A stretch of 64,000 bases of DNA from Escherichia coli (GTDB lineage: Bacteria > Pseudomonadota > Gammaproteobacteria > Enterobacterales > Enterobacteriaceae), in assembly GCF_002854065.1 (NCBI RefSeq), contig NZ_CP024147.1. The stretch is one strand, 5' to 3'. Under the pieces are notes generated by a model. It had not been told where the DNA came from. It ran no database searches and saw nothing but the letters and a program-made list of their open reading frames with translations. Shown one piece after another: positions 17,496 through 19,819 of the stretch (its first letter is position 1; each line of letters starts with the position of its first letter). The position numbers and the translations under genes are program-made.

Positions 17496-18520
17496 ACCGA
17501 CTCCTGATTCAAATGTATGATGGTATTCATTGAACAGAACAATGGATCCCCCACCGTTGCTGACCGCAAAACATTTACGCGATTAATACTGCGCGTAATA
17601 TAATTAAAAATCCAGCATTCTCAATCCATTACGAAATAAGATGGCATTACGGAATAGCCAGACTTTCTCGTGTTAACGTCCGACAAAATGCGTCATTGAC
17701 AGCGGTTTCTGTGGATTGACACATTTCATTCAGATAATGAATTAATGCTACTGCCGGAACAACCAGCAAACGGGCATTGTGTTCTGAAATCCAGGCTATT
17801 GATTCAACGTCAGCGACAGATCTGCGCTGTAAAAGAACTTGTAAAACAACGTAATAGAATTATCCGGAATGGTGGCGACTATGCACTAGAACACCACAAT
17901 TTCGCTCTCTCGGTAAGGCACTGTCACAGCATTCAACAGAATGTGACTTGCCAGATTTATTAGCGCCACCAGATGTTTAACCGGGTAACCACGACCCAGT
18001 CGGGGATATATTCCATCTTCTCGCTGACATCATCAAGAATAAAAAGGTTTATCACACTCAGAGCAACGTTCTTCAGCAGGCGGGATAATTCTTCAACATT
18101 TAGAAGATGTGTTATTAAAGGCATACAAACTGGACGTATTGTATTTTCTTTTGGTGGTTGACCTAAGGTAGCAGTTTATCCTGATGCGCTGAGATTTCTG
18201 TAATATCTACGTCAACATTCTCCTCGAATAGAAAATGCAGCCCCGGCAAGTGATTCACATTTTTTAACAAAACGTTGTTAGCGTGCCATTTTCAGAAGCT
18301 CTCCAAGAAAGCGAATTCTTTTCTCAAATTCTGCATTCTCAGACACAGCTTTCTACTCCATGGTAATGGCCCAAATACGAAGTTGCTCAGGATCATTAGT
18401 GGTGCTGAGAAGTTAAATAACCATGCGGAGTACCACTCGTCATCACGTATTTATATATCATGAAGCTATTGTTGTGTTTTGTACATCAGTAGATATATTC
18501 TGATATACTCCTTTTGCTAG

Positions 18521-19715
18521 GGAAGGTGCGAATAAGCGGGGAAATTCTTCTCGGCTGACTCAGTCATTTCATTTCTTCATGTTTGAGCCGATTTTTTCTC
18601 CCGTAAATGCCTTGAATCAGCCTATTTAGACCGTTTCTTCGCCATTTAAGGCGTTATCCCCAGTTTTTAGTGAGATCTCTCCCACTGACGTATCATTTGG
18701 TCCGCCCGAAACAGGTTGGCCAGCGTGAATAACATCGCCAGTTGGTTATCGTTTTTCAGCAACCCCTTGTATCTGGCTTTCACGAAGCCGAACTGTCGCT
18801 TGATGATGCGAAATGGGTGCTCCACCTTGGCCCGGATGCTGGCTTTCATGTATTCGATGTTGATGGCCGTTTTGTTCTTGCGTGGATGCTGTTTCAAGGT
18901 TCTTACCTTGCCGGGGCGCTCGGCGATCAGCCAGTCCACATCCACCTCGGCCAGCTCCTCGCGCTGTGGCGCCCCTTGGTAGCCGGCATCGGCTGAGACA
19001 AATTGCTCCTCTCCATGCAGCAGATTACCCAGCTGATTGAGGTCATGCTCGTTGGCCGCGGTGGTGACTAGGCTGTGGGTCAGGCCACTCTTGGCATCGA
19101 CACCAATGTGGGCCTTCATGCCAAAGTGCCACTGATTGCCTTTCTTGGTCTGATGCATCTCCGGATCGCGTTGCTGCTCTTTGTTCTTGGTCGAGCTGGG
19201 TGCCTCAATGATGGTGGCATCAACCAAGGTGCCTTGAGTCATCATGACGCCTGCTTCGGCCAGCCAGCGATTGATGGTCTTGAACAATTGGCGGGCCAGT
19301 TGATGCTGCTCCAGCAGGTGGCGGAAATTCATGATGGTGGTGCGGTCCGGCAAGGCGCTATCCAGGGATAATCGGGCAAACAGGCGCATGGAGGCGATTT
19401 CGTACAGGGCATCTTCCATGGCACCGTCGCTCAGGTTGTACCAATGCTGCATGCAGTGAATACGCAGCATGGTCTCCAGCGGATAGGGCCGTCGGCCATT
19501 GCCCGCCTTGGGATAAAACGGCTTGATGACAGCGGTCATATTCTGCCATGGCAGAATCTGCTCCATGCGGGAGAGGAAAATCTCTTTTCGGGTCTGACGG
19601 CGCTTAGTGCTGAATTCACTATCGGCGAAGGTGAGTTGATGGCTCATGATGTCCCTCTGGGATGCGCTCCGGATGAATATGATGATCTCATATCAGGAAC
19701 TTGTTCGCACCTTCC
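18521..19715 (-). mobile_element. IS5: IS5 (1195 bp); flanks CTAG (left) vs CTAA (right)
   Basis: Terminal repeats ggaaggtgcgaataag / cttgttcgcaccttcc; 326-aa InsH ORF. Confidence 0.9.
18667..19647 (-). CDS. insH: IS5 transposase InsH
   Basis: 326-aa [37 protein letters not shown]... Confidence 0.9.
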
Positions 19716-19819
19716 CTAATTTCGATAGGTTCTCAGATGAGAATGATGACGGTGATACACAGATAAGAATCAATGAGCAATGAGGGTTGCCGGGCAACCC
19801 TCATTGAATAAAACAGGAA

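Follow-up and report, generated by a model that had tools for sequence, protein, structure and literature searches.

Loss of the cryptic prophage CP4-44 through recombination of two IS5 copies has been observed experimentally in Escherichia coli K-12 (PMC5009759; Sci Rep 2020, PMC7193553). In those events insH6, the IS5 copy beside cobU (window-equivalent position 17886), was joined to an IS5 about 35 kb away, and some 30 host genes, the his operon included, were also lost. Among the deletions recorded in mutation-accumulation lines, the combination of one pre-existing and one new, nearby IS5 copy dominates (72 of 98; Lee et al. 2016, PMC5009759), and YTAR has been described as the IS5 target motif (PMC5009759).

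In K-12 MG1655, CP4-44 exactly fills the space between cobU and tmaR (yeeX) and carries agn43/flu, yeeRST, cbeA/cbtA and yeeW, and related islands of 6.6–31 kb are found in strains E2865, EC24, SY3626 and MEI4BO-21. In the 64-kb stretch of E. coli DNA analyzed here (the window), the same interval (17496–19819) measures 2,324 bp by the gene coordinates, 51% of which is an IS5-type element of 1,195 bp (Table 1). Our analysis bears out what a preceding reading of the letters (the sequence-only reading) had stated: an interval of about 2.3 kb, half of it IS5, at a place where K-12 has CP4-44; no CP4-44-like prophage; and IS5 flanks, CTAG and CTAA, that differ at one base. When island proteins (tblastn) and island DNA (blastn) from K-12, E2865, EC24, SY3626 and MEI4BO-21 were searched against the 64-kb window, only IS copies matched, and no CP4-44 gene or DNA is left.

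From comparison with these relatives, we conclude that the interval very probably arose when a CP4-44-like genomic island was deleted through the action of IS5. It resembles the K-12 events in IS family, locus, outcome (a single IS5 at the joint, the island gone) and YTAR motif, but the anchoring IS lies beside tmaR, the joint is at CTAG 18517, only the island appears to have been lost, and the event is a natural one. Deletions of this kind, mediated by insertion sequences, are ordinary and already known; the allele itself is rare: of the 5,426 complete E. coli genomes compared, two (100416 and CUWW06) have CTAG-IS-CTAA. The deletion would explain why the strain is without a CP4-44-type island and any ancestral cargo, and it carries little weight beyond correct annotation.

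Table 1. Features of the cobU–tmaR interval and its bounding genes (window coordinates)
Feature	Position	Strand	Basis
cobU, left bounding gene	16950–17495	minus	181-aa ORF; strain 100416, near-identical here, has it annotated as WP_000973176.1
Conserved, decayed DNA, no intact gene	17496–18520		1,025 bp; longest ORF 72 aa
"Cobalamin biosynthesis protein, missing N-terminus" fragment, presumed cbiP 3' remnant	17647–17790	minus	RefSeq/PGAP annotation of identical DNA
IS4-family transposase remnant, internal stop	17799–17987	minus	PGAP; stop codon in translation
Second CTAG of the spacer, empty here	17886–17889		K-12 alignment breaks there around IS5 (insH6)
54-aa hypothetical ORF	17960–18124	minus	WP_001128468.1; no Pfam/NCBIfam match
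CTAG, native IS5 target, probable new (derived) deletion joint	18517–18520		Comparison with relatives
IS5-type element, IS5/ISKpn26 chimera, 1,195 bp	18521–19715	minus	Length and inverted repeats
Intact IS5-family DDE transposase, 326 aa	18667–19647	minus	Pfam DDE_Tnp_1 E 2e-35, DUF772 E 3.5e-21
CTAA, probably what is left of the original target-site duplication, old joint	19716–19719		Comparison with relatives
Right remainder, 100 bp downstream of tmaR	19720–19819		Read from sequence; contiguous with tmaR in all relatives
tmaR (yeeX), right bounding gene	19820–20149	minus	ORF; WP_000450409.1 at the equivalent position of 100416

The insertion sequence combines IS5 and ISKpn26 parts

The element has exactly the length of IS5 (about 1,195 bp) and the 16-bp imperfect terminal repeats of that element (GGAAGGTGCGAA(T/C)AAG). 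Its IRR end (18521–18536) lies at the deletion joint and its IRL end (19700–19715) points towards tmaR; the repeats GGAAGGTGCGAATAAG (from 18521) and CTTGTTCGCACCTTCC (up to 19715) are complementary at 15 of 16 positions, and the same ends are present in K-12 IS5. The ORF list and Pfam agree on a single intact DDE transposase of the size found in IS5 (~326 aa), identical copies of which occur in 100416, CUWW06 and MEI4BO-21 (WP_001575870.1, IS5-like element IS5 family transposase). K-12 IS5 (insH) shares length, 16-bp repeats, transposase and YTAR targets with the window element.

Full-length near-identity to reference IS5, on the other hand, was not found: overall identity is 96.2%. Of the 46 differences from K-12 IS5, only three lie within ~800 bp of the IRR end and 43 in the final ~400 bp; the ~350 bp at the IRL end are about 12% divergent and of the ISKpn26 type. 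The last 300 bp differ from K-12 IS5 at 39 positions and from ISKpn26 (the strain HZ13 copy) at one. ISKpn26, an IS5-family element, further shares the architecture and a 4-bp CTAA duplication, but differs at 53 positions in the IRR-proximal 400 bp, and the window element as a whole is a chimera. The copy in MEI4BO-21 is identical over all 1,195 bp, and that in SY3626 differs at one position.

The chimeric structure might be taken for the scar of a recombination between an IS5 on the left and an ISKpn26 on the right; we rejected this reading, as MEI4BO-21 has the identical chimera in a perfect CTAA duplication and still contains the island.

The two flanks of the element correspond to separate native sites

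Around the window element there is no 4-bp target-site duplication: CTAG and CTAA both fit YTAR, yet they differ. The base-identical MEI4BO-21 copy lies between CTAA and CTAA, and we attribute the lack of a duplication in the window to the deletion.

In the relatives, the left native site reads ...CCTTTTGCTAG|ACATAACC and the right one ...GCTGTTGCTAA|TTTCGATAGG, with island genes between. The distance from left to right site is 6,579 bp in MEI4BO-21, 9,055 bp in SY3626, 10,943 bp in K-12, 26,203 bp in EC24 and about 31.2 kb in E2865. The left CTAG is empty in all five of these genomes, where it is followed by ACATAACCTTTCACC..., and it is joined to the IS end only in the island-less 100416 and CUWW06, never where the island is retained. 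At the right site, CTAA occurs just once where the IS is absent, its TAA being the stop codon of a pduV remnant; in SY3626 and MEI4BO-21 (both checked) the element sits in a perfect 4-bp CTAA duplication (...GCTGTTGCTAA-IS-CTAATTTCGATAGG). The old joint, IS-CTAA-tmaR, was found in five genomes, three of which (MEI4BO-21, SY3626 and EC24) retain the island and the pduV remnant, with the IS in the same orientation.

The sequence-only reading had left two explanations for the mismatched flanks, a point change after insertion or a rearrangement. The rearrangement fits; the point change does not, the two native sites lying 6.6–31 kb apart. It had also considered that the same 4-mers might flank the site without IS5 in related strains: both do occur there, but at two separate places and never adjacent. 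We give next to no credence to a simple insertion of IS5 into an island-free site followed by mutation of one copy of its duplication. The flanks do differ by a single base, and island-free alleles do exist (530 genomes), but the common island-free allele has another joint, in which 17683 is fused to the inside of pduV' and 17684–18520 is missing; both 4-mers pre-exist kilobases apart in every relative examined; and a query with an artificial joint of left and right flanks had no contiguous match among the 5,426 complete E. coli genomes.

The window shows what is looked for in an IS deletion, namely one end of the element that keeps its original flank and target copy (the right joint matches that of island-bearing relatives exactly) while the other abuts DNA that is distant (6.6–31 kb) in relatives, and a new joint at a consensus target (CTAG, 18517–18520). 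As CTAG is rare (39 copies in the 64-kb window, two in the 1,025 bp left of the element), a deletion endpoint exactly at CTAG is not a chance position. Relatives share sequence for 178–434 bp past 18520 before the genomes diverge; since it lies inside this conserved DNA, the left endpoint is neither the island boundary nor an att site.

These endpoints also make it extremely unlikely that the island left by its own integrase/att excision and that IS5 inserted later and independently. CP4-type islands are in principle mobilized by integrases, and some other K-12 cryptic prophages, such as Rac, excise at att sites (PMC7193553). In this case, however, the right endpoint is, to the base, the end of an IS already there in island-bearing relatives, and the left endpoint falls within conserved, non-island DNA; TTGCTA(A/G) is all that the two sites have in common, with no att-like repeat; annotation lists no integrase in the islands that K-12, E2865, SY3626, MEI4BO-21 and EC24 have at this locus; and no IS-free genome with the same endpoints joined is present among the 5,426.

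Mis-joins classically arise at repeats of 1.2 kb, and a single IS could be what an assembler made of two copies around an island. We consider such a collapse very unlikely, as two complete genomes, one from Gambia and one from Thailand, were sequenced independently and have the identical CTAG-IS-CTAA arrangement; the window crosses four IS1 copies unbroken, which suggests a long-read or finished assembly; and the rest of the window is free of island DNA. We regard a mismatched IS5 "duplication" of this kind as a reliable deletion scar rather than a mutated duplication.

Probable loss of the island and of the pduV remnant

The cargo of the islands in relatives ranges from Ag43 (K-12, E2865) down to a bare set of yeeS/yeeT, cbeA and a cbtA with a frameshift. 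Next to tmaR, E2865 has a C-terminal fragment of pduV (Pfam PduV-EutP, E 3.2e-12, profile positions 86–142 of 143), and in the window this fragment is gone from beside tmaR, save for its stop codon. By these comparisons, the absence of the island would be a secondary loss anchored on the IS and not a primary absence. The 100 bp that remain on the right contain, by direct reading of the sequence, an inverted repeat with 14-bp arms (19778–19806) downstream of tmaR. There is no sign of an effect of the remaining IS on cobU, 1 kb away, or on tmaR, where the IS lies beyond the 3' hairpin.

The DNA between cobU and the element is conserved but decayed

The claim that 17496–18520 holds no convincing ORF was upheld: the longest is 72 aa, Rfam yields no match (a lone score of E 0.5 is noise), and the RefSeq annotation of identical DNA in other genomes is limited to a pair of pseudogene fragments and a hypothetical ORF of 54 aa. 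A scan of the interval for promoters and terminators gave no excess over shuffled sequence. Its description as about 1 kb of non-coding DNA is apt in that no intact gene is present, but the stretch is not featureless, being conserved, decayed DNA with remnants: it is matched at a coverage of at least 80% in 3,160 of the 5,426 complete genomes, in many of them with 100% identity. Remnants of yoeA or att sequences, proposed as something to look for in 17496–18520, are not retained there; in K-12, the yoeA fragments lie some 650 bp past the deletion endpoint.

The cobalamin-related fragment has no match in Pfam, NCBIfam or PDB sequences, and a homolog search of 5.8 billion proteins returned E. 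coli fragments only and no full-length CbiP. Its cbiP label draws, beside the RefSeq annotation, on what Lawrence and Roth reportedly described; a literature search for a cbiP remnant upstream of cobU gave nothing usable. Under this label the fragment would, together with pduV', be a relic of an ancestral cbi-pdu region. The IS4-family remnant scores E 4.7e-5 against NCBIfam NF033592, well under the cut-off of that model. In K-12, alignment places its own IS5 (insH6) in the CTAG equivalent to the second, here empty, CTAG of the spacer.

Proposed history of the deletion

As comparison with the relatives shows, the IS5/ISKpn26 chimera first entered a CTAA ~100 bp downstream of tmaR by simple insertion, the TAA there serving as stop codon of the pduV pseudogene remnant. 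CTAA was duplicated in the process, and the island remained to the left of the IS, as it still does in MEI4BO-21, SY3626 and EC24. In a second step, the product of which is present in the window and the route of which we infer, the transposase would have joined the IRR end to the native CTAG ~1 kb upstream of cobU. The island would have been removed in full, along with the pduV remnant, the left CTAA and no less than 434 bp of conserved spacer, with CTAG-IS-CTAA as the remainder. The IS beside tmaR is placed first because the old joint occurs together with the island in relatives and the new joint only in island-less genomes, an argument from a small sample of just five genomes with the IS at CTAA.

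Two routes could have led to the second step. In one (a), a local hop would place a second, directly oriented copy at CTAG, and the two identical copies would then recombine homologously, with loss of the DNA between them; in the other (b), the resident copy would move into CTAG in one intramolecular transposition and so cause an adjacent deletion. We lean slightly towards route (a), because the mutation-accumulation data read most IS5 deletions as local hops that led on to recombination. The 5,426 genomes yielded no intermediate with the island between two IS copies, nor one with the IS at CTAG 18517 and the island kept; K-12-type matches to the latter are in two pieces, with insH6 at the other CTAG. 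Metagenome contigs, in assemblies of a kind that usually break at IS elements, contained neither the CTAG-IS junction with the island nor the deletion junction (0 each). The two routes leave the same sequence.

Three types of island loss were seen between cobU and tmaR: IS5-bridged, IS1-bridged and with a microhomology joint. A single-step, replicative intramolecular deletion by the chimera, at an island locus that was lost in at least three independent ways and would be a recurrent hotspot of genome reduction, is a tentative and somewhat doubtful combination. If true, the one-step deletion would be a natural example from an element usually treated as cut-and-paste.

Ancestry of the flanks

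The left flank of the window differs from K-12 at 21 positions in 7.9 kb, only four of them between 11000 and 17889, whereas the left flank of the island-bearing genomes with the IS is about 2% divergent. From the IS rightwards, 5 kb show four mismatches to MEI4BO-21, and identity to K-12 is 98.6%. Because the left flanks differ in this way, K-12-like in the deletion-bearing genomes (four differences in about 7 kb) and ~2% divergent in genomes with IS and island, the sampled island-bearing relatives are not the direct precursor, and the history of the locus includes at least one homologous recombination event.

The region adjoins the his/O-antigen recombination hotspot. Import of the deletion joint together with one flank by homologous recombination, in place of its formation in this lineage, would explain the mosaic of a K-12-like left flank and a MEI4BO-21-like IS and right flank, and would qualify our preferred explanation. 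We consider it unlikely: the CTAG-IS joint still had to form somewhere, the event being only moved, and a switch of ancestry inside the island, lost along with the island, is simpler.

Other alleles at the locus

Alleles without an island are common here. Two genomes, the pangolin strains M159-1 and M171-1, carry an IS1-bridged deletion with one endpoint at 18441 and the other within pduV', and a compact, IS-free cobU-pduV'-tmaR joint, found in 530 of the 5,426 genomes (e.g., APEC O78, N767 and M9), leads from 17683 to inside pduV' with CCG microhomology. Both retain part of pduV', while the window retains none, and endpoints and mechanisms differ. Descent of the window from the compact allele was ruled out, as that allele is without 17684–18520 and keeps pduV'; recombination with the insH6 of K-12 was likewise ruled out, as 17886–18520, to the right of the insH6 site, is retained in the window.

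The reconstructed IS5-mediated deletion would be a clean natural example of the IS-driven erosion of a cryptic island, with precursor-like alleles in public genomes. Given its rarity, the allele may serve as a lineage marker.

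The cobU-tmaR interval

The 2,324 bp that separate cobU from tmaR (yeeX) in the window comprise three segments: a gene-poor stretch, an IS5-type element and a short segment beside tmaR (see the table). The sequence-only reading had described this interval, its IS5 and the unequal CTAG and CTAA flanks correctly in all details, and its placing of CP4-44 at this position in K-12 was accurate, as agn43, yeeRST, cbeA/cbtA and yeeW sit between cobU and tmaR in MG1655. It had also reported no CP4-44-like prophage here; in agreement, protein and DNA searches with the K-12 island and four related islands found no match in the whole 64-kb window.

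Features of the cobU-tmaR interval (window coordinates unless a locus is named)
Feature	Position	Strand	Length	Remarks
cobU	16950-17495	minus		
Gene-poor stretch	17496-18520		1,025 bp	
Partial 'cobalamin biosynthesis protein'	17647-17790			RefSeq annotation of identical DNA
IS4-family transposase fragment	17799-17987			RefSeq; internal stop; weak NCBIfam support (E 4.7e-5)
Hypothetical ORF	17960-18124		54 aa	RefSeq annotation of identical DNA
Left IS flank, CTAG	18517-18520			
IS5-type element	18521-19715		1,195 bp	
Transposase, intact	18667-19647	minus	326 aa	Pfam DDE_Tnp_1 (2e-35) and DUF772
Segment between IS and tmaR	19716-19819		104 bp	
Right IS flank, CTAA	19716-19719			
tmaR (yeeX)	19820-20149	minus		
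Compact-allele joint, N767	L009 3270-3300			
Compact-allele joint, M9	L010 4270-4300			

The gene-poor stretch is conserved, being at least 80% covered in 3,160 of 5,426 complete E. coli genomes, many at 100% identity. It had been judged to hold no convincing ORF, and the longest is indeed at most 72 aa; it gave no Rfam match, and its promoter- or terminator-like sites are no more numerous than in shuffled sequence. Searches of Pfam, NCBIfam, PDB and homologues gave no independent support for the annotated cobalamin gene fragment. In Salmonella, cbi-cobUST adjoins the pdu operon, so that a putative cbiP fragment near cobU and a pduV fragment near tmaR would be, as we presume, the two stumps of an ancestral cbi-pdu region, which E. 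coli is said by Lawrence and Roth to have lost. A yoeA remnant, which had been proposed as something to look for, is not kept; the K-12 yoeA fragments begin about 650 bp past the deletion endpoint.

The IS flanks are two separate native sites

When the left and right flanks were fused in silico and searched against the 5,426 complete genomes, none contained them contiguously. Relatives carry ...ATACTCCTTTTGCTAG|ACATAACCTTTCACC... at the left site and ...GAAGGCTGTTGCTAA|TTTCGATAGG... at the right. CTAG and CTAA are both native sequence there, at two distinct places, and a pduV/eutP pseudogene fragment (Pfam PF10662, 3.2e-12) has the TAA of the right site as its stop codon. The sites lie 6,579 bp apart in MEI4BO-21, 9,055 bp in SY3626, 10,943 bp in K-12, 26,203 bp in EC24 and about 31.2 kb in E2865, with CP4-44-like island genes between them in all five. 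The sequence-only reading had left the choice between a point change after insertion and a rearrangement bordered by IS5; only the rearrangement stands, since the two tetramers are separate sites whose flanks are contiguous in none of the 5,426 genomes. The CTAG/CTAA mismatch is, on this evidence, a deletion scar.

An IS-CTAA-tmaR junction was found in five complete E. coli genomes, three of which (MEI4BO-21, SY3626 and EC24) retain the pduV remnant and the island left of the IS. In SY3626 and MEI4BO-21, which were checked directly, a perfect CTAA/CTAA duplication surrounds the IS and the CTAG site is empty; over 5 kb rightward from the IS, the window differs from MEI4BO-21 at four positions. 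The CTAG-IS junction, in contrast, is limited to two genomes without the island, 100416 (Gambia) and CUWW06 (Thailand), and no IS at CTAG with the island still present was found in complete genomes or metagenome contigs. On this distribution, the joint at CTAA came first and that at CTAG is derived: the IS lay beside tmaR, and DNA was then lost from its IRR end leftward as far as CTAG.

The element itself has IS5-type terminal repeats (GGAAGGTGCGAATAAG and CTTGTTCGCACCTTCC) and is a chimera. About 800 bp from the IRR end are of the K-12 IS5 type (3 differences), while the IRL-end ~300 bp are of the ISKpn26 type (1 difference from ISKpn26, 39 from K-12 IS5); 108 positions distinguish K-12 IS5 from ISKpn26. 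Since MEI4BO-21, SY3626, 100416 and CUWW06 share this chimera, it is older than the deletion. The window copy shows no difference from that of MEI4BO-21 over 1,195 positions and one from that of SY3626. The EC24 copy (14255-15449 of its locus, L007) has the same CTAA site and orientation, with 16 clustered differences (equivalent to window 19192-19543) that resemble a tract of gene conversion by a different IS5-family copy.

Origin of the CTAG joint

IS5 targets YTAR (PMC5009759), and CTAG is a rare tetramer, occurring 39 times in the window and just twice in the 1,025-bp stretch. The CTAG-IS joint is a transposase product. Site-specific excision of the island followed by an unrelated IS insertion is ruled out: the left endpoint lies inside conserved sequence, which in relatives extends 178-434 bp further before diverging, so that the endpoint is not the island boundary; the two sites have TTGCTA(A/G) alone in common, with no att-like repeat; and an annotated integrase is absent from the islands examined at this locus. 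The other CTAG of the spacer (17886-17889, 631 bp nearer cobU) is occupied in K-12 by insH6 (IS5), as in ~362 genomes, essentially K-12 derivatives; both CTAGs have therefore been struck by IS5, in different lineages.

Two routes would yield an identical sequence product. A second IS copy could have entered CTAG in direct orientation and recombined with the first, or the resident copy could have transposed intramolecularly once, giving an adjacent deletion. In K-12 mutation accumulation, 72 of 98 IS deletions involved a copy already in place and a new one close to it, and their length spectrum was ascribed to local hopping, with a single aberrant event allowed as an alternative for deletions between two new copies (PMC5009759). 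Loss of CP4-44 by recombination of two IS5 copies was seen in that study and in K-12 genome reduction (PMC7193553). We lean slightly towards the two-step route, a local hop and then recombination.

Mosaic ancestry and deletion size

Across the region compared (10000-23583), the left flank of the window is K-12-like, with 21 differences over 10000-17889, 4 of them within 11000-17889, and none between 16900 and 18520, whereas the IS and right flank resemble MEI4BO-21 and share just 98.6% identity with K-12. The MEI4BO-21 left flank is ~2% divergent from the window; in 100416 and CUWW06, cobS is the K-12-type allele. These similarities indicate that at least one homologous exchange is also part of the history of the locus. 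On the simplest reading the ancestry switch sat inside the island and was lost with it; possibly the finished deletion allele was imported, which would merely relocate the event. The sampled island-bearing genomes are thus models of the precursor, not the precursor itself, and the deleted length is accordingly given as a range, roughly 7-31 kb.

Other island-free alleles

Island-free intervals are common. A compact IS-free allele, in which window-equivalent 17683 is joined, at a CCG microhomology, to the interior of the pduV remnant, occurs in 530 of the 5,426 genomes (e.g., APEC O78, N767 and M9); it may be either the scar of the ancestral cbi-pdu deletion or a later island deletion. Two pangolin isolates, M159-1 (L004 3322-4179) and M171-1, carry an IS1-bridged deletion with other endpoints, from window-equivalent 18441 to inside the remnant, of which the last 93 nt are kept; this deletion of the same island is independent of the IS5-bridged one. 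The IS5-bridged allele is rare (2 of 5,426 genomes, plus the window), but the loss of a cryptic island through ordinary IS-mediated deletion, as here, is a known phenomenon with a textbook mechanism.

All three relatives that have both the island and the IS at CTAA carry a cbtA toxin gene annotated as frameshifted (18893-19266 in both L005 and L006, 12893-13266 in L007). If this also held for the window's ancestor, no harm would have come of deleting the cbeA antitoxin together with the island.

Other differences in the window

The yeeJ-amn region (103-8624) is just 93% identical to K-12. The sbmC product (gyrase inhibitor GyrI; 21577-22041) has 154 aa, versus 157 in 100416, owing to a 9-bp in-frame deletion that removes VPK (...KNIVPKEWV... 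to ...KNIEWV...), and also has a T-to-R change (DETPAE to DERPAE); these differences could be real or sequencing errors.

Relative to MEI4BO-21, a 15.2-kb insertion (23584-38793) lies between dacD and sbcB. It is a prophage remnant with acyltransferase and baseplate genes and an integrase (37418-38596), broken by two IS1 copies (31519-32287 and 35932-36703); the 3.6 kb bracketed by these have no match in the complete ~38-kb prophage that CUWW06 carries at this site, where 100416 apparently has a few kb. The window contains four IS1 copies in total. The other two lie between yeeN and a tRNA-Asn gene (8635-9407) and within tsuA/yeeE near its 5' end (41506-42273), the latter with a ~10-bp flank-alignment overlap consistent with target duplication.
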